Virus record (IMG/VR): IMGVR_UViG_2909314774_000001
Source of the DNA: a virus
Taxonomy: Duplodnaviria > Heunggongvirae > Uroviricota > Caudoviricetes
Direction: 5' to 3' (one strand)
Length of the DNA: 64,000 nt
Below are positions 4,603 to 44,409 of this stretch, piece after piece. Under the pieces are notes generated by a model. That model was not told where the DNA came from, searched no databases, and saw only the letters and a program-made list of their open reading frames with translations. Position 1 is the first letter of the stretch; each line of letters starts with the position of its first letter. Position numbers and translations under genes: made by a program.

Positions 4603-4684
4603 GTATCTGGATAAGTAAGTACTAATTTACTATCATTGTGGCGCTGACAGGATGTTAGCGCCTACTTATTTCAAGGATGAAACA

Positions 4685-5383
4685 ATGGGAATTAAAGCTG
4701 ATATTCAGAGCTTATCTCCCTCTGCACTCATTGAGTTGTTCGTACTGGATATGTCGAACACAACTTCAGGGGGGAAGCTATTCTTCCACGCCGGAACAAA
4801 CGAACTGATGCAACCGGTCGTCTGGCAAGGAGTGACATACGAGCCGTGGCCAATCAAAGCATCAGGCTTTGACAAAACTGGCCAGGGAACGTTGCCACGT
4901 CCAAAAATTCAGGTATCGAACTTTGCCGGAACTGTCTCTGCGGAAGTTCAGGCAAACGACGATCTTGTTGGCTGCCGCATTATTCGCAAGATGACACTGG
5001 CTCGCTTCCTCGATGCCGTTAATTTTAAAGACGGCAACCCAACAGCAGATCCAAACCAACATTTCCCGGATGAAATGTGGTTTATCGAACAGAAAACTCT
5101 CGAAACTCATCAGGTTGTCGAGTTTGAATTGTCCAGTGTGTTCGATTTGATGGGGGTGCAACTGCCGTATCGTCAGATCATTAAAAACACCTGCCCGTGG
5201 AAATACCGAGGGCCAGAATGCGGCTATACCGGTCCATATTTCGACAAAAATAACCAGCAGACGTCTATGTCTGGTGCGGATTACTGCACAAAACGTTATG
5301 ACGCCTGTAATGCGCGTCGGAATTATTTTGCCGACGGTGTGATCCATTTTGGCGGATTTATTGGAGCTACGCGGTATGGGTAA
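4685..5383 (+). CDS. minor tail protein L (lambda gpL-like)
   Basis: Strong recalled similarity to lambda gpL (WQGxxYxPxPI, ARFLDAVNF, NTCxWxYRGxECGY, FGGF). Start chosen at ATG 4685 (AAGGA RBS 7 nt upstream) rather than ORF-track start 4652. Confidence 0.8.
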   Translation: MGIKADIQSLSPSALIELFVLDMSNTTSGGKLFFHAGTNELMQPVVWQGVTYEPWPIKASGFDKTGQGTLPRPKIQVSNFAGTVSAEVQANDDLVGCRIIRKMTLARFLDAVNFKDGNPTADPNQHFPDEMWFIEQKTLETHQVVEFELSSVFDLMGVQLPYRQIIKNTCPWKYRGPECGYTGPYFDKNNQQTSMSGADYCTKRYDACNARRNYFADGVIHFGGFIGATRYG

Positions 5384-6173
5384 TAAAGCAATCCCTGAGC
5401 TTGGCTCTGACGTTATGCAGCAAATCTATCTCTGCGCCATAAATCGCTACCCTAATGAAGCGTGTGGCTTTCTGGTTAGAACTAATGGCGACAAATATCG
5501 CTTTATGGAAGCGCGGAATGTTTCGGAGAACCCGCAGAACACTTTTGTAATGCACGTTGACGACATTATGGCGGCAGAGGATGCGGGTGATGTTATCGCA
5601 ATCTGGCATTCACATACTGATGAATCAGCAGAAGCATCTGATGCCGATCGTGCAGGCTGCGAAGCGACGGAAGTTCCGTGGATGATTCTGGCTATTCGCA
5701 AGAATGTTGAGGGAGATGCCCCTTTCCATTTTAGCGAGATGAATGTGATCACACCTGATGGTTTCGAAATGCCATACCTGGGCAGACCGTATGTATTTGG
5801 CGTATTCGATTGCTGGATGTTGTGTCGGGACTATTTGAAGCGTGAGTTTAACGTCGAACTAAACCCGAACGCACACCTGCATATTCCATCGTGGTACACC
5901 GGCGATAACGACATTCTCGATCAGAACTACCGTAACGAGGGATTGGTGCGTCTTGCGCCCGGAACAGAGCCTCAACGTGGGGACATCTTCTTTATCCAAT
6001 ACGGGAAAATGCCTGACCACTGCGCGGTTTATATCGGCGATGGAATGATTCTTCATCACCAGATCGACCGCCTTAGTTGTCGTGCTTATTACGGCGGAAT
6101 GTATCAGAAACATACGACGCATCACTTGCGTCACAGAGACTTGCTCAAGGGAGATGAGACGTGTCTGAGTTAG
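5376..6173 (+). CDS. tail assembly protein K (MPN/JAMM plus NlpC/P60 domains, lambda gpK-like)
   Basis: ACGF...HSHT...S.ADR JAMM-like motif followed by FDCWML and HCAVYIGDG.LHH NlpC/P60-like region; first ATG at 5376 overlaps the stop of L. Confidence 0.8.
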   Translation: MGNKAIPELGSDVMQQIYLCAINRYPNEACGFLVRTNGDKYRFMEARNVSENPQNTFVMHVDDIMAAEDAGDVIAIWHSHTDESAEASDADRAGCEATEVPWMILAIRKNVEGDAPFHFSEMNVITPDGFEMPYLGRPYVFGVFDCWMLCRDYLKREFNVELNPNAHLHIPSWYTGDNDILDQNYRNEGLVRLAPGTEPQRGDIFFIQYGKMPDHCAVYIGDGMILHHQIDRLSCRAYYGGMYQKHTTHHLRHRDLLKGDETCLS

Positions 6174-6754
6174 TTCATGTGCAGCTTGGCGGCCCTATGG
6201 CCAAACATTTTGGCCGCCACTGGCATCTAAAGGTGCGCAATACAAAACAGGCTCTGGATTTAATTGAGGCCAACAAGCCTGGGTTTAAAGCATGGATGAA
6301 GCGCAATATCAAAACCTATGACCGTTACCACATCCAGATCACCAATAAACAGGGCCACAAGTGGTCTGTTGACGAAAGTGAATATCAGATGATGGGGCAG
6401 TCTGACAACATTGCCAAAATCCGCATTACACCTGTTCCGCGAGGAAGCGGTGGATCTGCTTTTGGGTGGTTTCAGACGGTAGTAGGGGCCGCTTTGTTGG
6501 TTGTATCGGCGGTAGTGATGCCTGCTTTAGCACCTATCGGTTTGTCACTGATGATGGGCGGCATATCACAAATCATATCGCCGCAAGCCACTAACGAAAG
6601 TGTGAGACAGGCAGATAACTCGAACTCTTATTATTTCGACGGCCCTCAAAATACAGAAAACCAGGGCAACCCAGTACAACTTATCTATGGCGAGGAAATT
6701 CTGGTTGGCTCACAGGTTGTGAGTTCTTCAATCACGATTGACCAGCTAATGTAA
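6161..6754 (+). CDS. tail assembly protein I (lambda gpI-like)
   Basis: 197 aa between K and J homologues, GTG start overlapping K stop, hydrophobic C-terminal half as in lambda gpI. Confidence 0.65.
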   Translation: MSELVHVQLGGPMAKHFGRHWHLKVRNTKQALDLIEANKPGFKAWMKRNIKTYDRYHIQITNKQGHKWSVDESEYQMMGQSDNIAKIRITPVPRGSGGSAFGWFQTVVGAALLVVSAVVMPALAPIGLSLMMGGISQIISPQATNESVRQADNSNSYYFDGPQNTENQGNPVQLIYGEEILVGSQVVSSSITIDQLM

Positions 6755-9700
6755 ACAAGGATTTTTTTGAACATGGAACAGTTCAAGAAGAAAAAGTTAC
6801 CGCTGTTTATTGCAGGTGCGGGTGGTAAAAAAAGCAGCAAAAGCTCTAGCCGTACACCGGTTGAAGCCGACGATACCGTAAATTCTCGTGCAATGGCCGC
6901 TATCCTCGATCTTCTTGGGGAAGGTGTAATTGGCGGCTTGGTAAATGGCGCAAGATCTATTTTTGTCGACGATCTGCCGATTGTAAATGAAGACGGTTCC
7001 TCCAACTTCAGCGGAATCACATGGGATTTTCGCGACGGTTCGCAAGACCAGACTCCAATGTCTGGCTTTGATTTCGTTGAAACGCCTAAATCCGTCAATA
7101 TCCAGTTAAAAAAAACACATTATGTAACGGTTTCAATCGATAACGATGAAGCTGATCGGGTTCGTGTCATCATGAAGTTTCCTTCTTTGCGAAGCATAGA
7201 TAAAAAAACTGGTGACACGAACGGTACAACCGTTGAGTACAAGTTCCAGATAGCAAATGGCGACTCAACATTTGTAGATGTGGTCGCAGAAGGTGAAAAA
7301 AGCGTTGGCATTAAGCTAACAGCAAAGAAGACAGGTGTTTATTACCGTAGCTATGAGCTGAAGCTGCCTAAGCCTGGACGCGCGTACAAGGTTCGTGTAG
7401 TCCGTATTACCGATGATAACAGCAGCCAGTATCTCTATAACGATACATGGGTGGACTCAATAGGTGAGATTGTAGATACACCGATGAACTACCCAAACTC
7501 TGTGCTGGTGGGTCTGAAGGTTAATTCTGAGCAGTTTGGTAGCACCATGCCATCTCGTTCGTATTTGGTACGTGGATTAAAAATTCGCGTGCCGTCAAAC
7601 TACAACGAGGCCAGCAACACTTATGATGGTGTATGGGATGGCACTTTTAAGCTGTTGTCTTCTTCAAACCCCGCGTGGATTCTCTTTGATTTGCTTACCA
7701 ATGCTCGATATGGCCTTGGTCAGTATGTGTCGGAATCTATGATTGACCTCGGCCAGCTATACCAGATCGGTCGATATTGTGACGAAGAGGTTGATGATGG
7801 CTTTGGTGGTAAAGAGAAACGCTTTGCAATCAATACGCAGATCACCAGTCGACAGGACGCATACCGATTAATTCAGGATATTGCCGGTGCATTCCGCGGT
7901 ATGGTGTTTTGGGCTGGTGGCATGGTTAACATCATGCAGGATAGCCCATCAGATCCGGTAATGATGTTTACCAACTCTAACGTCAAAGATGGATTGTTTA
8001 CCTATAAAGGTTCTGCGCGTAAAGATCGCCCATCCGTTGCGCTCGTAACCTACAACAACAAGGAGGACGGTTATAAGCAAAACATCGAGTACGTTGAAGA
8101 TCAGGACGCAATGCGCCGTTATGGTGAGCGTAAGACAGAAGTCGTAGCATTTGGCTGTACAAGCCGAGGGCAGGCTCACCGAGTTGGTTTGTGGCTTTTA
8201 TATACCGCCAGAATGGAGTCGGATGTAATTACATTTACTGCCGGCTTAGACGCGTCATTTCTGATGCCTGGTGAAACCGTTCTGATTCAGAACAAATATC
8301 GCGCAGGCAAACGTAACTCAGGTCGAATTGTGGCGTTTACCAAAAACAGCGTCACACTCGATGCGCCGGTGTCGTTAGCCAAAGGCGGCTGCTTTATTCG
8401 AATACTGAATCAGGAAGGCAAAATCGTTGAACGCGATGTTCTTGAAACTGGCGAAAATATAACAAAAGTTACGTTTTCAAAATCCCTGTCTTCGGCTGAA
8501 ACGCCTGTTTTGAACGGCGTCTGGACTATTACAGAACCAGACCTCGAACCTATGCGCGTTCGCATCGTTAACATCGCGCAGGGGGAAACGCCGGGTAGCT
8601 TTGACATCACCGCTGTTGAGAACAATCCGTCTAAATATGAGGCAATCGACAATGGTGCAACGCTGATCCCGCAGAATACGACGGTATTGGACCCAACTTA
8701 CTCCAAGCCATCTAATCTGCAAATCACTGAAGGGACTTATCTCTCAAGCCCGGGCAACCTGTCAGTAAAACTGACTGCAACATGGGAAGGGAAATCTCCA
8801 GAGTATTGGATCAGTTGGCGACGTTCTGATGAAAACAATGTATCGAACTGGCAATCGGCGCGTGTAACCGAAGAGCAATACGAAATCGTTAATGTCGCGG
8901 AGAATGGACGCTACGACTTCCAACTGTATGCGGTTTCATTCAACGGTAAAAAAACAGAAATTATCAGTACCGTTTATCAGGTGCTGGGCACAATGACACC
9001 GCCGGATGCACCAACGTCATTAACGGCCGTTGGAGACTATCGTAATGTGATACTGAATTGGGTTAATCCAGATTCGGTGGACCTTGATCACATTAATGTT
9101 TACGCATCCCAGACCAACAATCTGGATACGGCGAAACTGATCGCAGAGTCTGCAAGCACCACCTTTACACATGCTGGTCTTGGGGATAGCGAAACGTGGT
9201 ATTACTGGGTTCGAGCATCGAACAAGCGAGGTATGTTAAGTCCTCCGAACTCAAACTTGGGTACAGAGGCGACAACTCGCGATGTACTGTCGTTCCTGAC
9301 TGGCAAAATTACATCTTCCGAGCTTGGTCAGGCTCTGCTTGAGGACATCAACAGCAAAGCCTCTCAAGAAGCAGTTGACGAGTTAAATGAGCATATCAAC
9401 CAGAGCGTCGAATCTTTGGAGGGGGCGGTAAACGACGTTAAGGAAGATATAGCTGAATTAGATAAGCAGTTCAGCGATAACCTCGCGGATTTTGAAATAA
9501 AATTCAACGAGCGTAGCGATGCTTTGGAGAACGCACAAACCGAGCTTAAAGGTGAGGTTTCGGCAACGATTGACAAGGTCAATGAAGCGTTTGAAAAAAT
9601 TGATGCTACTGATGCTGCAATTGTTGAAATCGAAAACACCGTATCTGAACACGATAAAGCTCTCGCTAATACAGTCGAGGCAATAAAGGCTGCAAGAGAT

Positions 9701-10041
9701 GAAGCGGCGGCTCTTATTGCTAAGGAAAGCGAGGCTCGTGTTGAAGGCGATGCTGCAAACGCTAAACAACTGGAAGTGTTGCAGTCAACGGTAGAGGAAA
9801 GCTCCGCTGCCGTTGAAGAAATGAAAAAGACGGTTGCAGAGGTCGATCGTGCCAGTGCAGAACTGACTACGAACATTGAGGCGTTAGCCAAAACAAATAT
9901 TGACCTGGCTCTTCGTCAAGATGAAGACCAGCACAAGCAGATGGTCAATAACGCGAAGATCGCAACAACACAGAAAACCTTTGCTGATGATATGTCTGCA
10001 ATGGCCACGAAGGTTGAGGAAATTCGGGTAATGACTCCAAC

Positions 10042-10545
10042 TTACTGATAGTGTTTTATGTTCAGATAATGCCCGATGACTTTGTCATGCAGCTCCACCG
10101 ATTTTGAGAACGACAGTGACTTCCGTCCCAGCCTTGCCAGATGTTGTCTCAGATTCAGGTTATGTCGCTCAATGCGCTGAGTGTAACGCTTGCTGATTAC
10201 GTGCAGCTTTCCCTTCAGGCGGGATTCATACAGCGGCCAGCCATCCGTCATCCATACCACGACCTCAAAGGCCGACAGCAGGCTCAGAAGACGCTCCAGT
10301 GTGGCCAGAGTGCGTTCACCGAAGACGTGCGCCACAACCGTCCTCCGTATCCTGTCATACGCGTAAAACAGCCAGCGCTGACGTGATTTAGCACCGACGT
10401 AGCCCCACTGTTCGTCCATTTCAGCGCAGACAATCACATCACTGCCCGGCTGTATGCGCGAGGTTACCGACTGCGGCCTGAGTTTTTTAAGTGACGTAAA
10501 ATCGTGTTGAGGCCAACGCCCATAATGCGGGCGGTTGCCCGGCAT
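10042..10545 (-). CDS. insB: IS1 InsB (transposase made as InsAB' by -1 frameshift)
   Basis: 167-aa frame matching IS1 InsB; the A6C slippery motif (TTAAAAAACTC on the coding strand) lies at 10481-10491 in the insA/insB overlap. Confidence 0.9.
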
Positions 10546-10739
10546 CCAACACCATTCATGGCCATATCAATGATTTTCTGGTGTGTACCGGGTTGAGAAG
10601 CGGTGTAAGTGAACTGCAGTTGCCATGTTTTACGGCAGTGAGAGCAGAGATAGCGCTGATGTCCGGCAGTACTTTTACCGTTACGCACCACGCCTTCAGT
10701 AGCTGAGCAGGAGGGACAACTGATGGAGATGGAAGCCAC
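10464..10739 (-). CDS. insA: IS1 InsA transposition regulator
   Basis: 91 aa [40 protein letters not shown]..., near-identical to canonical IS1 InsA as recalled; zinc finger CPSC...CSHC. Confidence 0.93.
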
Positions 10740-10905
10740 GGGAGCACCTCAAAAACACCATCATACACTAAATCAGTAAGTTGGCACCATTACCGAAATT
10801 CGCGTAGAAATTGGCGAAGACATTAAGGCCAGTATTCTGGAAGAGTCCACCGCTCGTGCCGATGGCGATGAAGCGTTGGCAAAGCGTGTCACTCAGCTGC
10901 AATCT

Positions 10906-11796
10906 AAGTTTGAAGGAGATATCAGCGCGGCGATTAGTACAGAGCAGGAGGCTCGTACATCTGCCGATGAAGCTCTGACGACACAGATCACTCAGCTTGA
11001 GTCGAAAGTAAGCAACGATATCGTCGCAGCTATTAAGGAAGAGCAAGAAGCCCGAGCAACGGAAGATTCGGCTCTGGCAAGCCAGATCACCCAACTTCAG
11101 GCAAAGGTTGATGATGATATTTCTGCTGCAATACGTAGTGAGCAGGAGGCTCGAGCAAGCGGGGACTCTGCGTTAGCCAAACAAATAAACCAGCTTCAGT
11201 CAAAGGTTGACGGTGATATATCCGCTGCCATCACTCAGGAGCAGGAGGCCAGGGCAAGTGCTGACCAGGCGCTCTCACGAGAAATTAACAGCCTGCGAGC
11301 ACAAACCGGAACTGATATTGCCGCAGCGGTTGCTGTAGAGACAAAAGCAAGGACTGATGCCGATAGTGCATTGTCTACCCAGATTACGTCTCTTACAGCA
11401 AAAGCTAATGATCTCGAGGCGTCTCTTGCCAGAGAAACAACGGCTCGTGCAGATGGTGATACCGCTTTAACAAAAGAGGTTTCAAGTTTAAAAGCACAGA
11501 CAGCGAAAGATATTAGTGCGGCCGTTGCAGTTGAAACGCAGGCTCGAACTGATGCTGACTCGGCGTTGTCGTCTCAGATCACCAAGCTGACCTCTCAATA
11601 CAAAGAGGATATTAAAGCGGCTGTAGCAACCGAAACGAAAACGCGTACAGAGCAAGATGCTGCATTGGCGACTCAAATCACAAACTTAGAGTCTCAAACG
11701 GCAGCCAACATTTCCGCGGCGGTAACAACTGAAACGACAGCGAGAACGCAGGCAGATAATGCTTTGAGTGGGCGAATCGATACTCTGAAAGCAGAG
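10906..11796 (+). repeat. nine tandem 99-bp (33-codon) coding repeats inside the J fibre gene
   Basis: Translation shows nine consecutive 33-aa units of the type K-V-D-x-D-I-S-A-A-I-x-x-E-Q-E-A-R-x-S-x-D-x-A-L-x-x-Q-I-T-Q-L-Q-(S/A). Confidence 0.85.
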
Positions 11797-12369
11797 GTGG
11801 ATGGAAATACCGCGACAATTCAACAGCAGGCAACAGCTATTGCTGATACCAACAAAAAAGTGTCAACCGCGTGGACGTTGAAAATGGAAACTTCAACGAG
11901 CGGAGGGCAGAAGTATGTTGCTGGTATTGCGCTTGGTATCGACACCACTGGCCTTTCTCAGTTTTTGGTGCAGGCTGACAGGTTTGGTTTGGTCAACTCT
12001 GTTAACGGGAAGATCACAACGCCATTTGTTATCGAAAACAGTATCGCCTATATGAATGGAGCGTATATCAAGGATGGCACAATCACCAATGCAAAAGTAG
12101 GCGATCTGCAATCTACCAATTTTGTTAGCGGTAGATCTGGATGGCGGTTCGGCAAAAATGGAACGCTTGAGATCAACGGTAATAGCGGCGGCAATGGGCG
12201 ATTGGTTATAAATGGTCAGCGGATTGACGTTTATGACGATAACAACGTCTTACGAGTAAGAATTGGCCGTCTGTGATGGTGGAAAAAAAATTTTATATCG
12301 GTAAAAATAGGTAAGTATTTACTTAATGGCGGGCAAGGATAGCCCGCCAAATCAAGGAGCATATTCAAC

Positions 12370-15300
12370 ATGTGGTACAGGGAAGGTACTATCACATTTA
12401 CACAGGGTAGCAATACTCTGGTTGGGGCAGGGACAGCCTGGAACGTAACAGCTAATGGTGTGTTGCCGGGGATGATCGTCATTGGCCCCGACAATAAGCT
12501 GTATGAGATCAAGCGCGTAACCAGTGATACGAACATTGTTCTCTCAGAACCTTATACCGGCGAAACTCAGTCTGAAGTTCCGTGCCGAATCATTACGACC
12601 TATGAAGGCGACTTAACACAGTTTAGCGCGCGCTTTACAGCACTAATGTCGCGTATGTCGGCTGATTCCAAGTCCATGCGCAGTTGGTTGACTGCTCTGG
12701 ATGAGGTGACAATCGAGCGTGAAGACGGTACAGAAGTGACCGTTAAGCCGCTAATGCAGATCGTCAACGAGCACAACGAAAACGTTGAGTGGTATAAAAA
12801 TAACACTGACGCGATTGATGCTGCTGGCGACAAAGCTCGTGAGGCGGCGGCCAGTGCTGCCGCAGCAGCAGAAAGCGCCAATATCGCTGGAGAAAAAGCC
12901 TCTCAAGCGTCTCAAAGTGCATCCGCTGCGGCATCCTCACAAAGTGCCGCAAGTGCGAGTGCAACTGCTGCGAAAAAATCTGAAACGAATGCTGCAGCGT
13001 CACAAAAATCTGCAGCCACTTCTGCATCCACCGCGACCACGAAAGCGTCAGAAGCTGCCACCTCAGCCAGAGATGCGTCGGCTTCAAAAGAGGCGGCAAA
13101 ATCATCAGAAACGAGCGCAGCCTCCTCGGCAACAGCGGCAGGCAATTCCGCGAAGGCGGCAAAAACGTCCGAGACGAACGCCAGGTCTTCTGAAACGGCA
13201 GCGGGACAGAGTGCCTCAGCTGCGGCAGGCTCAAAAACAGCGGCTGCGTCGTCTGCCAGTGCCGCGTCAACAAGTGCCGGGCAGGCCTCATCCAGTGCCA
13301 CCGCCGCCGGAAAATCGGCAGAAAGTGCCGCATCGTCTGCTTCAACAGCCACAACGAAGGCTGGCGAAGCCACTGAACAGGCCAGCGCAGCAGCGAGGTC
13401 TGCTTCCGCAGCGAAGACATCCGAAACGAACGCGAAAGCGTCGGAAACCCGTGCAGAATCCTCAAAAACGGCAGCCGCATCGTCCGCCAGTTCGGCAGCG
13501 TCATCGGCATCATCTGCGTCTGCTTCAAAAGATGAGGCGACCAGACAGGCGTCAGCAGCGAAGGGCAGCGCCACGACGGCATCCACGAAAGCAACAGAGG
13601 CGGCAGGCAGTGCGACGGCAGCATCTCAGAGCAAAACTGCTGCTGAATCCGCTGCGACCCGTGCGGAAGCTGCTGCTGATCGTGCTGAAGAGATTGCCGG
13701 TGCAGTTGCGATGGAAGACGCAAGCCTTACAACTAAAGGTGTTGTGAAACTTAGCAGTGCTGTCGATAGCACCAGCGAATCACTGGCTGCAACTCCAAAG
13801 GCAGTTAAAGCTGCGAATGACAATGCGAATAGCCGATTGGCGAAGAATCAGAATGGCGCTGATATCCCAGACAAGGGCCGCTTCCTGAGTAACATTAATG
13901 TTTACAGCAAAGGTGAAGTGGATAAGAAAAAGGGGATGCGAAAATACACTTTCTCTGCTCCTGCAAATGCAGTAAGCGGTAAGTGGTATCCTGTAGTCTT
14001 TCGCCGAACTGGTGGTGGCACAGATGAATTAGCCTCACGAGTGGTTATCACCACTTATTCCTCAGCTGGCGGATACGCCATGAATAATTGTGAATTTAAT
14101 GGGTTTGTTATGCCTGGCGGTTGGTCTGATCGCGGTTCATATGCGGCTGGTTTTTTCTCAATATATTCTACTGCTGAGCGAGCTATACACTCGATTATCG
14201 CAAGCGTGAAAGATGATGATTTGTGTAGTGTATTTTACGTTGAGACAAGAGCATTCCCTATCCAGATTTTTGCTGAGGAAGGATTAAATGTGATTGTTCC
14301 AACGGCTGATTATGCAGTTGGTCAAACCACTTATAAGTGGGGGGCAACTGATCCTTTATCAGAAAGTACGAATGCACAGATAATTTTGGACTTTAAAAAT
14401 GGACGAGGTTATTACTGTTCACATCCATTTATTTCAAGTCTTTCAGGAAATGCTGCTACAGCCACGAAATTGCAGACGGCAAGATCTATCGGTGGAGTTG
14501 TTTTCGACGGTTCTGCAAATATTAACCTTCCAGGTGTAAACACTACGGGTAATCAGAACACCACTGGTAATGCTGCAACTGCTACAAAACTTCAGACTGC
14601 AAGAAAAATATCCGGTGTTCCATTTGATGGTTCTACTGATATCACTTTAACCGCCGCGCATGTTGCCGCTTTCGCAAGAAGAGCAACAGGGTCATATGCT
14701 GATGCTGATGGCGGCGTGCCGTGGAATGCTGAATCTGGTGCTTATAATGTAACTAGAACGGGCGACAGTTATATTCTTGCCAACTTTTATACTGGTGTAG
14801 GTAGTTGCCGTACGCTTCAAATTAAGGCTAACTATAAAAATGGTGGGTTGTTTTATCGTTCATCTCGCGATGGCTATGGTTTTGAAAGTGGTTGGGAGCA
14901 GGTTTACACGACTGGATTTAGACCTCAGCCGGCTGATATAAACGCACCAACCGCTGCCGACGGATGGTTAAATAGTGGTAACGGAACAGCATTTACGACT
15001 GCTCAGTTTATAACGTGGCTAAATAATCAGGGTGCATTTTCAAACAAATATTGGATTGCACGGTGCTCATGGTATTACGCCAACAATAATTATATAGACG
15101 ACACTGGTTGCGGTAGGATCGATCTATCTGGTTCCGTGATTGAGGTGTTTAGTAATAAGACAACAAGCAATTACACTATTCGTGTTACAACGACAACAAC
15201 ATCGGGTCATGGTGGCGTTAATAATGCGGAATTTATTTATGTGTACAATGGCAGTGATTACTCGCCAGGCTGGCGTCGTTCTTATAATACTAGAAACAAA

Positions 15301-17655
15301 CCAACAGCTTCTGATGTAGGAGCATTATCGCTTTCTGGAGGAGCGTTAACTGGCGGATTAACTGCTGCTGGCGAGATTATTTCAAAATCGGCGAATGGTC
15401 TGCGCATTGCCTACGGAAACTACGGATTCTTTATCCGAAACGATGGTTCAAGCACATACTTCATGTTGACCGATTCGGGTAACAGCCTGGGAACCTATAA
15501 TAGTTTAAGGCCGCTTATCATTAACAATGCCAATGGTGCTGTTAGGATCGGTAATGGACTCAATGTTACTGGCGGCATCAATGGTAGTTTGAACGGTAAT
15601 GCTTCAACAGCTACGAAGTTGCAAACAGCGAGAAACATCAATGGTGTTAAGTTTGATGGTTCAGGCGATATCAATATTAATACATTGGTATCTCGTGGCC
15701 GAGTTACGGCGTTAAGCGGCTCTACTCAAGGCACTGCTGGCATTCAAATGTATGAGGCGTACAACAATAGCTACCCGACCACGTATGGCAACGTATTGCA
15801 CATGAAAGGTGCGAGTGCTGCTGGTGAGGGCGAGTTGCTTATTGGCTGGAGCGGAACGGATGGTGCTCATGCACCGGTTTATGTTCGTTCACGCCGTGAT
15901 ACTTCGACAGCGAATTGGTCTGGTTGGGCGCAGGTCTATACCACTGCTCATAAACCCACAGCGAAAGATGTTGGGGCTGCACAGACGTTTAGCGCGTCAT
16001 ACAGTACTGGGGCTGGCAACTGGACTACCGCTGAATTTATCGCATGGCTGAAGGAGCGTGGTGCTTTCGCCGTACCGTATTGGATGATGAAAGGCTCTTG
16101 GTCATATGCCGACAATAAAATTATCACTGATACAGGTGTCGGCAATATTTGTCTTGCTGGTGCGGTTATCGAGGTTTTAGGTCACGAAGGCGCAATGACC
16201 ATCCGAGTTACTACGCCTACAACGACAACCGGAGGTGGTATTGCCAGTGCTCAGTTCACCTATATTAATCACGGTAGCGCGTATGCCCCTGCCTGGCGCA
16301 GAGATTACAACACGACTCTCAAACCAACTGCGGCTGATGTTGGTGCGTTGCCGAGCGGTGGCGGCACACTTTCCGGCGCACTCACATTATCTATGGTTGC
16401 GCCGAGTGTTCAATTACGAGGGCAAGGTACTGATACCAGGCAGTACATCATGGCTTACAGAACCGATGGTGCTACATCATGGTATGTAGGTAAGGCTAAC
16501 AACGGCTCTGATAGCGCGATGCTCTGGAACTATACGGGGGCAAACGGAGTCGAGTTGGCTGCCGATGGCAATGTGCGCATTAATGCGAAGGGTAAGCAGT
16601 TTACGTTCGCAAACAACGGCAATTTGGGGCTTGTCGCTTCGTTGGATCAAAGTTCTGTTCCACAGGGCATTTACCATCAAGTTGCTATGAACTCTGGAAC
16701 CAGAGGTGCTAAATCCTATCTTCGTAAGTTCAGGGGTGGGAACGCAGATACCGTCTGGCATGAAACCGTTCAAGACGGAAATTACCGACTTGCTACTGGT
16801 GACACTGATTCTCAGGGTGAAATGTACCTTTCGACTTCGGGTTGGGTTCGTTTCCGTGGTGAAGTTGTTTCAGAATCGGCCAATGGTTTGCGAGCCGCAT
16901 TCGGTAACTTCGGTTTCTTTATCCGAAATGATGGAACGAACACTTATTTCCTTTTGACAGCTTCAGGTGACAAGTACGGTTCTTGGAATGGTTTGCGGCC
17001 TCTGACTATCAACAATGTCAGTGGCGCAGTGTCAATGAGCAACGGACTAACTGTTGCTGGTGGACTTAATGTAACGAGCGGAAACCTGAAAATCTCGACG
17101 TCCAGCACATCGTGGATCGACATGAGAGCAGGCGTAGCCCTTTCGAACTCTTCAGCTGTTTCGACGTCATCCGCTTCGGCGATAGTCCGTCAAGAACACG
17201 CCGATCGCCATTTCATTCTTGGCGGTTTGGGTAACTCGCAGTTCGGGATTTACATGATTAACAAATCTCGAACTGCGAACGGCACTGACGCTGCCGCTTA
17301 TCTCCAGAACGACGGCACTTGGGTTTGCGCAGGCAACGGTAGTTTTAATGACGTTTACATCCGTTCCGACCGCCGTAGTAAGCGCAATATTCGCAAAATT
17401 GAGCGGGCGCTCGACAAGCTGGAGCAGATCGAAGGTGTTCTCTACGAGATTCAGGTCTGTGGCCGTTATGAGCAGTCTGGTGGCCTCATCGCTCAGGATG
17501 TCCAGAATGTTCAGCCTGAACTGGTAACGGTCGACCATAACGATCAGTCAGGAGAGCCTCGTCTGCGTCTTAACTACAACGGCGTTATCGGCATGTTGGT
17601 TGAGGCTGTCAAAGAGCTGCGCGAGGAAGTGCGCGAACTGAAGGCAAAAATGTAA
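12370..17655 (+). CDS. side tail fibre protein (lambda Stf-like N-terminus and shaft, C-terminal S74-type intramolecular chaperone)
   Basis: Residues ~160-480 closely resemble the Ala/Ser-rich shaft of lambda Stf (KTSETNAAASQKSAATSASTATTKASEAATSARDA...ATPKAVK). C-terminal ~120 aa (SDRRSKRNIRKIERALDKLEQIEGVLYEIQ...LVEAVKELREEVRELKAKM) looks like the autoproteolytic chaperone domain found in endosialidase-type fibres. RBS CAAGGAG precedes the ATG. Confidence 0.85.
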   Translation: MWYREGTITFTQGSNTLVGAGTAWNVTANGVLPGMIVIGPDNKLYEIKRVTSDTNIVLSEPYTGETQSEVPCRIITTYEGDLTQFSARFTALMSRMSADSKSMRSWLTALDEVTIEREDGTEVTVKPLMQIVNEHNENVEWYKNNTDAIDAAGDKAREAAASAAAAAESANIAGEKASQASQSASAAASSQSAASASATAAKKSETNAAASQKSAATSASTATTKASEAATSARDASASKEAAKSSETSAASSATAAGNSAKAAKTSETNARSSETAAGQSASAAAGSKTAAASSASAASTSAGQASSSATAAGKSAESAASSASTATTKAGEATEQASAAARSASAAKTSETNAKASETRAESSKTAAASSASSAASSASSASASKDEATRQASAAKGSATTASTKATEAAGSATAASQSKTAAESAATRAEAAADRAEEIAGAVAMEDASLTTKGVVKLSSAVDSTSESLAATPKAVKAANDNANSRLAKNQNGADIPDKGRFLSNINVYSKGEVDKKKGMRKYTFSAPANAVSGKWYPVVFRRTGGGTDELASRVVITTYSSAGGYAMNNCEFNGFVMPGGWSDRGSYAAGFFSIYSTAERAIHSIIASVKDDDLCSVFYVETRAFPIQIFAEEGLNVIVPTADYAVGQTTYKWGATDPLSESTNAQIILDFKNGRGYYCSHPFISSLSGNAATATKLQTARSIGGVVFDGSANINLPGVNTTGNQNTTGNAATATKLQTARKISGVPFDGSTDITLTAAHVAAFARRATGSYADADGGVPWNAESGAYNVTRTGDSYILANFYTGVGSCRTLQIKANYKNGGLFYRSSRDGYGFESGWEQVYTTGFRPQPADINAPTAADGWLNSGNGTAFTTAQFITWLNNQGAFSNKYWIARCSWYYANNNYIDDTGCGRIDLSGSVIEVFSNKTTSNYTIRVTTTTTSGHGGVNNAEFIYVYNGSDYSPGWRRSYNTRNKPTASDVGALSLSGGALTGGLTAAGEIISKSANGLRIAYGNYGFFIRNDGSSTYFMLTDSGNSLGTYNSLRPLIINNANGAVRIGNGLNVTGGINGSLNGNASTATKLQTARNINGVKFDGSGDININTLVSRGRVTALSGSTQGTAGIQMYEAYNNSYPTTYGNVLHMKGASAAGEGELLIGWSGTDGAHAPVYVRSRRDTSTANWSGWAQVYTTAHKPTAKDVGAAQTFSASYSTGAGNWTTAEFIAWLKERGAFAVPYWMMKGSWSYADNKIITDTGVGNICLAGAVIEVLGHEGAMTIRVTTPTTTTGGGIASAQFTYINHGSAYAPAWRRDYNTTLKPTAADVGALPSGGGTLSGALTLSMVAPSVQLRGQGTDTRQYIMAYRTDGATSWYVGKANNGSDSAMLWNYTGANGVELAADGNVRINAKGKQFTFANNGNLGLVASLDQSSVPQGIYHQVAMNSGTRGAKSYLRKFRGGNADTVWHETVQDGNYRLATGDTDSQGEMYLSTSGWVRFRGEVVSESANGLRAAFGNFGFFIRNDGTNTYFLLTASGDKYGSWNGLRPLTINNVSGAVSMSNGLTVAGGLNVTSGNLKISTSSTSWIDMRAGVALSNSSAVSTSSASAIVRQEHADRHFILGGLGNSQFGIYMINKSRTANGTDAAAYLQNDGTWVCAGNGSFNDVYIRSDRRSKRNIRKIERALDKLEQIEGVLYEIQVCGRYEQSGGLIAQDVQNVQPELVTVDHNDQSGEPRLRLNYNGVIGMLVEAVKELREEVRELKAKM

Positions 17656-31636: not shown

Positions 31637-31711
31637 GATGGTGTAGCTCAGCGGTAGAGCAGTTGGCTGTTAACCAACTGGTCGGTGGTTCGAATCCACC
31701 CACCATCGCCA
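31637..31711 (+). tRNA. tRNA-Asn (GTT)
   Basis: Hand-folded cloverleaf: acceptor GATGGTG/CACCATC, D-arm GCTC-AGCGGTA-GAGC, anticodon arm GTTGG-CTGTTAA-CCAAC, T-arm GGTGG-TTCGAAT-CCACC, encoded CCA. Confidence 0.85.
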
Positions 31712-31716
31712 ATTTA

Positions 31717-31803
31717 GGGGAGTTAGTCCGTAGGGGCAGCGGGGTAGACTGTAAATCTACTGTCATTGCGACTCGGGTGGTTCGACTCCATCACTCCCCA
31801 CCA
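31717..31803 (+). tRNA. tRNA-Tyr (GTA)
   Basis: Acceptor GGGGAGT/ACTCCCC, anticodon arm GTAGA-CTGTAAA-TCTAC, long variable arm, T-loop TTCGACT, encoded CCA; resembles E. coli tRNA-Tyr. Confidence 0.8.
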
Positions 31804-31807
31804 AATT

Positions 31808-31883
31808 GCCGGTTTAGCTCAGTTGGTAGAGCGCCTGCCTTGTAAGCAGGATGTCAGCGGTTCGATCCCGTTAACCGGCACCA
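31808..31883 (+). tRNA. tRNA-Thr (TGT)
   Basis: Acceptor GCCGGTT/AACCGGC, D-arm GCTC-AGTTGGTA-GAGC, anticodon arm CCTGC-CTTGTAA-GCAGG, T-arm AGCGG-TTCGATC-CCGTT, encoded CCA. Confidence 0.8.
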
Positions 31884-32203
31884 ACACAACAGGTAAGAGC
31901 ATTGGGCGAATCGGCGATACTGACCACAAGCCCGTAAATCGATAGAGTCAGACCAGTGCTCTTACCGTTGTGAGGAAGTGCAGCTCTTTGAAGCAACCAG
32001 AAGATAAGCATCTGGCTTCACAACACAACGATAAGATCATTACGGTTAATCGTCGTTCATGTGCACAATGACTGGTCGAAAGGTAGTGATCTTACCGTTG
32101 TGATGAATGCACAGGCTGATGTGCCGCAACTACAGTAGTGCGCGCTTTGCGGGGCTTGCTACAACCCTGTGTCGGAGTTCAGCACCGACCATCACAATAG
32201 CTG

Positions 32204-32290
32204 GAGAGTAGGGAGCATGGTGCTCAAGCGGTCTTGAAATCCGTCCCATTGTGCAAACGATGATGGTTCGATTCCATTACTCTCCGCCAG
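32204..32290 (+). tRNA. divergent tRNA-Ser-like gene (anticodon TGA), possibly degenerate
   Basis: Acceptor GGAGAGT/ACTCTCC, T-arm GATGG-TTCGATT-CCATT and CCA end are good; anticodon loop CTTGAAA as in tRNA-Ser(UGA), but the D-arm and anticodon stem fold poorly. Confidence 0.45.
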
Positions 32291-43561: not shown

Positions 43562-43864
43562 TAAAGAAAACCCGCCTGTTGGCGGGTTTATAAAGAATTA
43601 TGGCGCTTGTTGAGGAAGTCACTCCTCTTACGCACTTTGTTTTGCCATGCCGGCAGTTAGCTTCTGCCTTTGACTATTCATGCGGCAACCCCGCATTTCG
43701 CCACAATGGGCAATTCACTTTTATGGAATAAACTGGCCGTTGTGTCGATTTAATTAGCATGGCCTTACCATGCTAATTTATTCAACTTGTACAATCCTGC
43801 AAATCTATCCACTCAGGCTTACACCGTCTTCGTTATTGTAGAAATGAGGATCATCAGCGTTGAA

Positions 43865-44080
43865 TCAGCTTAGAGCAATGACATTTGCTGCTGCTGGGCC
43901 TTTAGCCCCATTCTCGATAGAGAATTCGACCTGCTGGCCTTCTTCCAAAGTGCGGAAATTATTACTCTGAATTGCCGAAAAATGTACAAAAACATCTTTA
44001 CTGCCATCAGCAGGAGAAATAAAGCCAAAGCCTTTATCAGAGTTAAACCATTTTACTAAACCAGTCATTTTATTAGACAT
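43865..44080 (-). CDS. cold-shock protein (CspA family)
   Basis: [38 protein letters not shown]: RNP1/RNP2 motifs of CspA-type OB-fold proteins; start placed at the internal ATG (70 aa). Confidence 0.85.
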
Positions 44081-44409
44081 AGATATTACCTTCTTAATTT
44101 TGTGAGCCACATAGTGCGGCGAGAATTTGATCTGTATAGATTGGGACTTACTTAGGCACTTAAGGAGGAGACTCACGAAGAAGGGAAATCAGAAGATAAC
44201 ACTGAACTGAGACTGCTTTACTAAAACTGCTTACATAAGGTCTGTCTTGCAAACCAACGATGCTATTAACGCATACCCCTTCTTTTCATGCAACCTTTAT
44301 TTTTCAAAGATAACTAATTTTTGTCACCATTGGTTTAGTAAACGTTAACGAACCAGACGATGCCAGACACCTTTACAGAGAACAGATGCCCGCCAATTGG
44401 CGGGCATCA

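Follow-up and report, generated by a model that had tools for sequence, protein, structure and literature searches.

The 64,000-nucleotide stretch analysed here (IMG/VR record IMGVR_UViG_2909314774_000001, Caudoviricetes; hereafter the window) contains a gene coding for a J-like central fibre or tail tip protein, called J below, that is split by a copy of the insertion sequence IS1 and whose distal part encodes an array of tandem 32/33-residue units, the subject of this study. Judging from its sequence, the gene belongs to a siphovirus of the SSU5/Cyrano type that is kept as a plasmid in Escherichia coli. J residues are numbered from the TTG at 6767, the ATG at 6773 being residue 3, and the locus is organised as follows:

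6773 to 10026, plus strand: N-terminal part of J as far as IS1 (hub, FNIII domains and the first 226 shaft residues)
9350 to 10026, plus strand: proximal non-repeat helical shaft, J 862-1087, including an orphan unit at 9695-9793 (from AlphaFold2, hydrophobic periodicity and a profile hidden Markov model, HMM, of the unit)
10019 to 10026, no strand: left 8-bp target-site duplication GAAATTCG, read from the sequence and present as one copy in intact Cyrano
10027 to 10794, minus strand: IS1, 768 bp, with an insA-like open reading frame (ORF) at 10467-10739 and an insB-like ORF at 10045-10545, both on the minus strand
10795 to 10802, no strand: right 8-bp target-site duplication GAAATTCG, from sequence comparison with Cyrano
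10803 to 12276, plus strand: C-terminal part of J, residues 1087-1577 and stop codon, separated from its start by IS1
11800 to 12273, plus strand: distal beta-rich C-terminal domain, J 1420-1577, with Pfam Phage_Tail_Tip (formerly DUF1983) at 11815-12219

The inserted segment has the features of an IS1 member, namely a length of 768 bp, terminal inverted repeats (agreeing at 23 of 30 positions), InsA and InsB frames that both match the NCBIfam model transpos_IS1 NF033558 (E 4e-43 and 8e-26) and an 8-bp duplication; matches to it also occur in E. coli records by the thousand. The break in J lies about 10 nt upstream of the first repeat unit, which starts 10 nt past the right target-site duplication. 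Removal of IS1 and one copy of the duplication joins 6767-10026 to 10803-12276 in a single frame of 1577 amino acids, with a junction identical to the intact sequence of phage Cyrano, in agreement with the original prediction, which had placed the repeats in the part of J that follows IS1. The insertion is recent, since the 490 amino acids that follow it do not differ at all from the intact allele of CP053388.1 (100% identity). An IS1-interrupted J was found in none of 5426 complete E. coli genomes, and among the SSU5-group J alleles the window's is the only one to carry IS1. J is inactivated by IS1 in the window and no functional fibre is expected from it; the insertion probably makes this copy of the phage-plasmid defective for adsorption, and the copy is probably unable to make infectious particles. 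A second independent insertion-sequence inactivation of J in this plasmid group was encountered in the related E. coli plasmid NZ_CP029421.1, where the IS3-family element ISEc52 lies within the same tail-tip gene.

Uninterrupted J is found in Escherichia phage Cyrano (99.3% DNA identity), in PhiR41_1 and in Salmonella phage SSU5, and besides Cyrano about 160 E. coli plasmids have it intact; Cyrano and CMS-2020a are 99.3-99.9% identical in the region. The C-terminal part of J is present in 179 of the 5426 complete E. coli genomes, all 183 matching places being on plasmids of about 95-120 kb, and the features of the SSU5 group, a plasmid replicon of about 100-120 kb (in the matching plasmids) with a collinear siphovirus tail module, are present. 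In a phage collection 1795 records match, with at least 80% query coverage in 246. Cyrano has been described as SSU5-like and produces virions (PMC9928086), and its allele, which like that of the window has ten units, therefore belongs to a working phage. In the annotation of the collinear Cyrano, PhiR41_1 and SSU5 loci, J comes after the tape measure gene and homologues of M, L, K and I, which is also its position in lambda, and ORFs matching the genes upstream of J sit at 4652-6754 in the window.

The restored protein was searched against Pfam, and hub domains were found at residues 104-238 (FNIII-A_GpJ, E 1.5e-29) and 360-523 (Phage-tail_3, E 7e-34), followed by fn3 at 747-826 and, distal to the FNIII domains, by Phage_Tail_Tip (PF09327, E 1.4e-41) at 1425-1559. 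It also matches NCBIfam lambda_TipJ with an E value of 1e-147, yet under that model's exact-equivalog cut-off of 1950 bits. With E values of 1e-131 and 2e-115, respectively, the N-terminal part matches the F2-pyocin fibre 25vf_A and lambda J 8iyk_J, residues 3-837 of the latter aligning to J 19-861 and residues 839-971 to J 1420-1549. Lambda J has no shaft: about 560 residues (J 862-1419), the array among them, are inserted here between lambda 837 and 839, which confirms that the repeats belong to an extension absent from lambda J. Beyond residue 971 lambda J continues into its LamB-binding C-terminal domain, which is lacking from the window's protein. Since PF12421, the lambda-type C-terminal receptor-binding domain (DUF3672 / LamB-binding), has no match, the protein ends with Phage_Tail_Tip and the alignment to lambda stops at 971, sequence comparison assigns it to a non-lambda (T1/F-pyocin) subtype of the J family.

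The array itself covers 10813-11799 on the plus strand (J 1091-1419) and consists of ten tandem units, nine with 33 codons and one with 32:

10813-10911, 10912-11010, 11011-11109, 11110-11208 and 11209-11307, plus strand: repeat units 1-5, 33 codons each, scoring 52-58 bits each with the unit HMM
11308-11406, 11407-11502, 11503-11601, 11602-11700 and 11701-11799, plus strand: repeat units 6-10, delimited by the unit HMM, 164 residues together

The 33-codon periodicity is real and far beyond chance. Amino-acid identity at a lag of 33 residues is 0.49 within the array, compared with 0.100 ± 0.018 in shuffled sequences (maximum 0.166 in 1000), and the profile HMM made from the units recovers all ten of them back to back, at 46-58 bits each; the translation of the ORF at 10876-12276 (plus strand) is visibly periodic. 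Nine consecutive 99-bp repeats had been predicted here. Their place and periodicity are correct and their number is not: the nine correspond to units 2-10, with the register set 6 nt further upstream, and leave out unit 1 (10813-10911); an exact fit of 9 × 99 bp fails because unit 7 (11407-11502), the most divergent of the ten and the sole one of 32 residues, has 32 codons. The proposed consensus KVDxDISAAIxxEQEARxSxDxALxxQITQLQS describes units 2-5, the 'EQEAR' subtype; units 6-10 form an 'ETxART' subtype. Upstream of IS1, the orphan unit (J 977-1009, window 9695-9793) gives a weak score of 13 bits with the unit HMM. The array is covered by no Pfam or NCBIfam model, where the only signal was sub-threshold coiled-coil noise (Mitofilin, SMC).

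Because Tandem Repeats Finder reported no repeat in 9000-14000 and the DNA-level repeat families of the region were short and weak, the repeat had to be defined on the protein. Nucleotide identity between units averages 52% and reaches 63% at most, and the longest exact word common to any two units is 14 nt. At the seven invariant amino-acid columns the same codon is used in only 33% of the unit pairs; Arg15, for example, is written as CGT, CGA, AGG or AGA. The repeats exist at the protein level and not as DNA repeats in the usual sense, and the units are old duplicates held alike by selection on the protein.

The array was then considered as part of the fibre shaft. AlphaFold2 models of the monomer contain a continuous helix over J 833-1085 (pLDDT, the local confidence score of the model, 90-98) and another over J 1093-1408, whose pLDDT values are 75-87 over the proximal units, drop to 54-60 over the final two and lie below 50 where the array meets the C-terminal beta domain. 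The strands of that domain have pLDDT values of 80-93, save for its first ~35 residues (<50); short strands at J 1415-1441 are likewise below 50, and this segment, DGNTATIQQQATAIADTNKKVSTAWTLKMET, aligns to F2 pyocin 1061-1090. The unit has the consensus GEDISAAIATETEARADADSALAKQITQLQSKV, of which A6, E11, R15, D19, A21, L22 and L29 are invariant in the array. Core-type residues occupy columns 4, 8, 11, 15, 18/19, 22, 26, 29 and 33; with nine of them in 33 residues they recur every 3.67 residues on average, in a 7+11+15 pattern. The unit had been called heptad-like, which this spacing contradicts; what it predicts is a coiled coil, almost straight, in whose core a ladder of E-R-D charges (the invariant salt bridges E11-R15-D19) is buried. 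Heptad, collagen-like and beta-helix readings of the unit were ruled out by the core spacing, the AlphaFold2 models and homology.

The shaft has two parts, a proximal non-repetitive one of about 230 residues (9350-10026 and 10803-10812, J 862-1090) and then the array, and between the orphan unit and the array all SSU5-type alleles share a conserved linker of 81 residues (J 1010-1090, containing TNIDLALRQDEDQHKQ). Unit 7 puts a one-residue register shift into the shaft and may be a kink or a docking site for the side fibre. In the position of unit 7, the fourth-last of the array, PhiR41_1 likewise has a unit of 32 residues and of similar divergence, which is absent from the alleles with five or six units.

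The closest experimental counterparts of this shaft were found among F-type pyocins (the PA0641 family), whose central fibre has the same order of hub, FNIII domains, long trimeric helical shaft and beta-rich Phage_Tail_Tip-type end; we compared the window with the F2 structures 25vf, 25vj and 26ci and with F7 as described in PMC12874032. The F2-pyocin fibre 25vf_A is matched with E 5.7e-25 by sequence (query 155-462 vs F2 882-1193) and 2.7e-70 by profile. The homology spans units 6-10 and the C-terminal domain, and in the alignment columns 11, 15, 22 and 26 of unit 10 stand opposite F2 residues E1039, R1043, L1050 and I1054. In F2 pyocin the shaft is a three-stranded coiled coil to which side fibres are attached (PMC13455828; bioRxiv 10.64898/2026.02.24.707460), so that, together with the continuous helix of the AlphaFold2 model, the homology upholds the coiled-coil extension proposed at the outset. 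The two systems also differ. The pyocin shaft has about 165-180 residues of degenerate periodicity, whereas the window has ten regular units in an array of 330 residues, preceded by another ~230 residues of non-repeat helix; and F pyocin is a tailocin, whereas the window's element is a phage-plasmid with no small PyoF11/F12-like genes between J and the fibre gene.

Among structures in the PDB, the best sequence match is gp33 of phage T1 (9L9P, E 8e-31), which also has 33-residue repeats (e.g. DQLKAQIGDDIQASLTDIREVIATETEALSREI) followed by the same C-terminal domain ending in RVQIGRL; this 1172-residue protein, from a lytic phage of 49 kb, has only about three units, and we group the J-like proteins of T1-like phages (Drexlerviridae) with it as a close system. 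Its C-terminal 350 residues were too flexible to be resolved and were modelled as a fibre of about 37 nm (PMC11945409). The strongest profile match (E 2e-83) is gp56 of Pseudomonas phage DEV (PDB 9ZE4), where the same repeats precede the same C-terminal domain in a stand-alone fibre of 429 amino acids from an N4-like podovirus, without the hub domains of J; it is a coiled-coil fibre whose end binds receptor-binding proteins (PMC12892993). Across the family, 3300 cluster representatives match at E <= 1e-3, with a preferred spacing of 32-33 residues. These sequence relationships place the array among the J-like central fibre proteins, a large family already known, in which it is a common feature, and there is little doubt in our minds that it forms the trimeric helical shaft of the central fibre.

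As in F pyocins, side fibres are encoded just downstream of the central fibre:

12370 to 17655, plus strand: side tail-fibre gene, 1761 amino acids, with Pfam Gp34_trimer (three times), gp37_trimer and Peptidase_S74

The protein has three trimerisation domains of the T4 gp34 type, a gp37 trimer region and a C-terminal Peptidase_S74 intramolecular chaperone, and over residues 2-107 it has a weak similarity to the F2-pyocin side fibre 25ve_A (residues 3-104, E 0.007). By this resemblance the side fibre probably docks on the J shaft. Its length varies among close relatives, with 1761 amino acids in the window, 1341 in Cyrano and 1260 plus a separate adhesin in SSU5; fibre length and content thus differ between them, and the fibre module has therefore been exchanged.

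The F-pyocin counterpart raises the question of whether the shaft remains a coiled coil. On contact with a cell, the coiled coil of 163 residues in the F7-pyocin central fibre changes into a triangular beta-prism (He et al., PMC12874032). The tip is thereby opened and the tape-measure protein ejected; killing is abolished by mutations that prevent the prism from forming, and a fold switch has been predicted for 21 of 24 phage fibres (PMC12874032). Each strand of the prism follows the pattern SxSxxMxxLxS, oriented according to strand direction, with Asp or Glu at M pairing with Arg at i+/-4, as in Glu1039-Arg1043 (PMC12874032). When the array was scanned with the published residue classes, every one of the ten units proved to contain the motif twice, in reverse orientation at columns 6-16 (M = E11) and in forward orientation at columns 21-31 (M = I/V26). 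Full matches in the array number 26, 20 of them in reverse/forward alternation and six extra, compared with 4.9 ± 2.2 in shuffled sequences (maximum 15 in 2000). The same motif pairs are present in F pyocins, where the shaft has seven full matches; applied to F2 pyocin as a positive control, the scanner returned two motifs, one reversed with E1039 at M and one forward with I1054 at M, in agreement with the published M-position Glu1039 and its partner Arg1043.

Further support comes from composition. First, residue frequencies at the S, L and M positions agree with the published ones: over 120 distinct units of relatives the S positions are 72% Ala, 11% Ser, 11% Thr and 3% Val, the published figures being 68, 11, 7 and 8 (PMC12874032), and both E11 and R15 are 100% conserved. 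Second, the segments between motifs are rich in D and G (D-A/G-D, K-V-D-G-D), as expected of turns. Third, the strongest harmonic of the unit's hydropathy is 33/16 = 2.06, a beta-like period (p = 0.014), while the upstream non-repeat shaft has only a helical hydrophobic peak at 3.56. The p value was obtained by column permutation, which replaced a hydrophobic-moment test against residue shuffles, the latter being unfair for a periodic sequence. Chou-Fasman helix and strand propensities are nearly equal in the array and in the upstream shaft and are uninformative. Other features of the fold-switch family are also present, namely the homology of the last ~400 residues to F2 pyocin and a long predicted helix directly upstream of a beta-rich C-terminal domain.

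The interval encodes the distal 330 residues of the alpha-helical central-fibre shaft, in the form of ten old and diverged units of 32/33 residues. Packed from three chains in the virion, they would make a nearly straight trimeric coiled coil of about 4.9 nm per unit, or about 49 nm for the array. The array would be a metastable spring, a proposal we make because each unit has two opposite SxSxxMxxLxS motifs parted by D/G-rich turns: we infer that a unit, folded as three hendecad-like turns of coiled coil, could be converted into one beta-hairpin, and that receptor binding would trigger this refolding throughout the array. The first strands of the C-terminal domain putatively correspond to the non-switching 'seed' strands of F-pyocin fibres, onto which refolding would proceed; the fibre would shorten from about 49 nm to about 10 nm, the tail tip would open and the tape-measure protein would be released. 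The shaft would probably serve also as a docking platform for the 1761-residue side fibre. Unit number changes in evolution through infrequent in-register recombination, in which the units at the ends are conserved and those inside are duplicated. The data show the repeats and their family, the predicted helix, the homology with solved coiled-coil shafts, the motifs and the variation in unit number; what we infer is that trimers form, that the fold switches and that side fibres dock. The explanation as a whole, a coiled-coil shaft of ten units acting as a fold-switching spring, has our slight preference, and taken by itself the switching of this central-fibre array appears to us evenly poised.

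Several points weigh against a fold switch. The AlphaFold2 model is purely helical, all models used here being monomers, which cannot test a trimeric beta-prism. The 3.67 harmonic of the coiled coil is not significant by itself in the hydropathy profile (p = 0.22, column permutation), since residues in the core are charged. Short and rich in Ala, the motif had its register chosen after the sequence had been seen, a post hoc choice that is mitigated by the F2 control and by the alternating orientation of the motifs. The units of relatives were gathered with an HMM built from the window array, and they therefore look more conserved than they are. The only switch demonstrated experimentally is half as long as the array, and the link to the side fibre depends on a single match at E = 0.007. 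Non-switching 'spine' segments have been reported by He et al. (PMC12874032). The proximal five units of the array may likewise stay helical. Lambda and T5 have no such switch. Finally, the gene is disrupted in the window, so that any function concerns the intact allele.

The main alternative gives the array the role of a static spacer: as a rigid coiled coil of three chains it would only set the distance from the tail tip to the distal receptor-binding end and offer docking places to the side fibres, unit number tuning the reach of the fibre without any refolding. This reading accords with the helix that alone is predicted by AlphaFold2, with the F2-pyocin shaft, a coiled coil bearing side fibres, with the weak resemblance of the side-fibre N-terminus to that of the F2-pyocin side fibre, and with the fact that unit number differs between lineages that have different side fibres. 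It would leave unexplained why small residues that are solvent-exposed in the coiled coil (A6, A14, A21 and columns 16, 23 and 31) are invariant, why oppositely oriented SxSxxMxxLxS motifs alternate strictly, why the array has a beta-like 2.06 harmonic missing in the upstream shaft and why it is homologous, through F2 pyocin, to a segment shown to switch in F7 pyocin. We consider this reading possible and rather doubtful. A metastable fold-switching shaft, maybe with docked side fibres, fits the evidence better than the tuning of reach suggested in the original prediction.

The number of units was next compared among relatives, using the unit HMM on phage records and on a representative library, from which the full-length counts were taken:

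5 units: SSU5 and one E. coli group (P0010-16)
6 units: Salmonella (P0007), Yersinia pestis (P0017-20) and Photorhabdus (P0029)
9 units: PhiR41_1, P0001-6 and P0009
10 units: the window and Cyrano

The repeats are thus present in relatives, in versions of 5, 6, 9 and 10 units, and the J proteins of the SSU5 group (SSU5_020, Cyrano CYRAN_20, PhiR41_1 J and alleles of the pMT1/pHCM2 type) are products of the same gene that differ in unit number. All counted SSU5-type alleles have the same orphan unit, 81 residues between it and the array, and a C-terminal end of 158 residues, and the differences in length are always of about one 32/33-residue unit. By best match, units 2-4 correspond to SSU5 unit 2, and units 6, 8 and 9 to SSU5 unit 4. 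In the wider family, the top-scoring representative, P0121 (2138 amino acids), has 21 contiguous 32/33-residue units, about twice the window array, and other representatives have up to 26 units in several blocks.

Among E. coli alleles more than 97% identical, at least three independent in-register losses of 99 bp with different crossover points were identified: unit 4 is cleanly lost in L004 and P0001, L003 has a hybrid of units 4 and 5 with the crossover in mid-unit, and P0006 has a hybrid of units 2 and 3. The original prediction that such repeats allow length variation by recombination is borne out to this extent, and the change is infrequent, the DNA copies being too diverged. Of the 163 full-coverage E. 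coli plasmids nearly all have the 1477-bp length (2 of about 55 sampled rows were shorter), and the 10-unit allele is nearly fixed in the sampled E. coli plasmids. These observations bear on a further alternative, in which the array would be a contingency locus whose repeats give frequent and reversible length change by slippage or recombination and, as a result, heterogeneous fibre lengths in populations. The three independent deletions are what such a locus would produce; the low identity between units, their short common words, the scrambled codons at conserved residues, the blank result of Tandem Repeats Finder and the near-constant 10-unit length are not, and we regard it as quite improbable. 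The last alternative, that the repeat count is an artefact of assembly by collapse or expansion, or that the region is a decaying pseudogene without selected structure, could appeal to the interruption of the gene by IS1 in the window and is refuted for practical purposes by the same 1477-bp length in dozens of independently assembled complete plasmids and in the virion-producing phage Cyrano (PMC9928086), by units too unlike one another to collapse and by the 490 residues after IS1 that are 100% identical to the intact allele.

Elsewhere in the window, four tRNA genes (Asn-GTT, Tyr-GTA, Thr-TGT and Ser-TGA) lie at 31637-32289 on the plus strand, and 43840-44258 on the minus strand is a full-length match to the Rfam cspA thermoregulator RF01766 (183 bits), implying from the sequence that the phage-plasmid carries a cold-shock protein gene with a thermosensor in its 5' untranslated region.

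The protein family to which J belongs is known; the particular regularity and length of the array and its reading as a series of hairpin modules have no counterpart in the papers searched. The switch region is not described as a 33-residue tandem repeat in the F-pyocin papers (PMC13455828, PMC12874032, 10.64898/2026.02.24.707460) or in the T1 paper (PMC11945409), and a literature search on tandem repeats in central-fibre coiled coils found no description. As a generalisation, which we advance tentatively and hold to be somewhat short of an even proposition, the 32/33-residue unit may be the modular quantum of a metamorphic fibre, a hendecad-like coiled coil before infection and a hairpin of a beta-prism after it, with arrays of 5 to more than 20 units acting as springs of graded stroke and stored energy. 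Under this proposal duplication and deletion of whole units would build and resize the arrays, because only whole units keep both registers. If it holds, contraction of the 10-unit E. coli allele would amount to about 40 nm, or some two times the stroke of the only switch characterised by experiment, that of F7 pyocin (163 residues).

For annotation, the locus is an ordinary central-fibre gene of a common E. coli phage-plasmid, inactivated here by IS1. Its wider interest lies in the source of the energy with which non-contractile phage tails breach the envelope, an open question, taken up only lately in work on F-type pyocins. Should the array prove to be a spring of this fold-switching kind, the natural alleles with 5, 6, 9 and 10 units would form a ready-made series, from phages (SSU5, PhiR41_1 and Cyrano) that are culturable or produce virions, PhiR41_1 growing on K-12. 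Such a series could relate shaft length to stroke, adsorption and host range in a case where one sequence has two folds, and the very regular units would be a possible design template for engineered tailocins.

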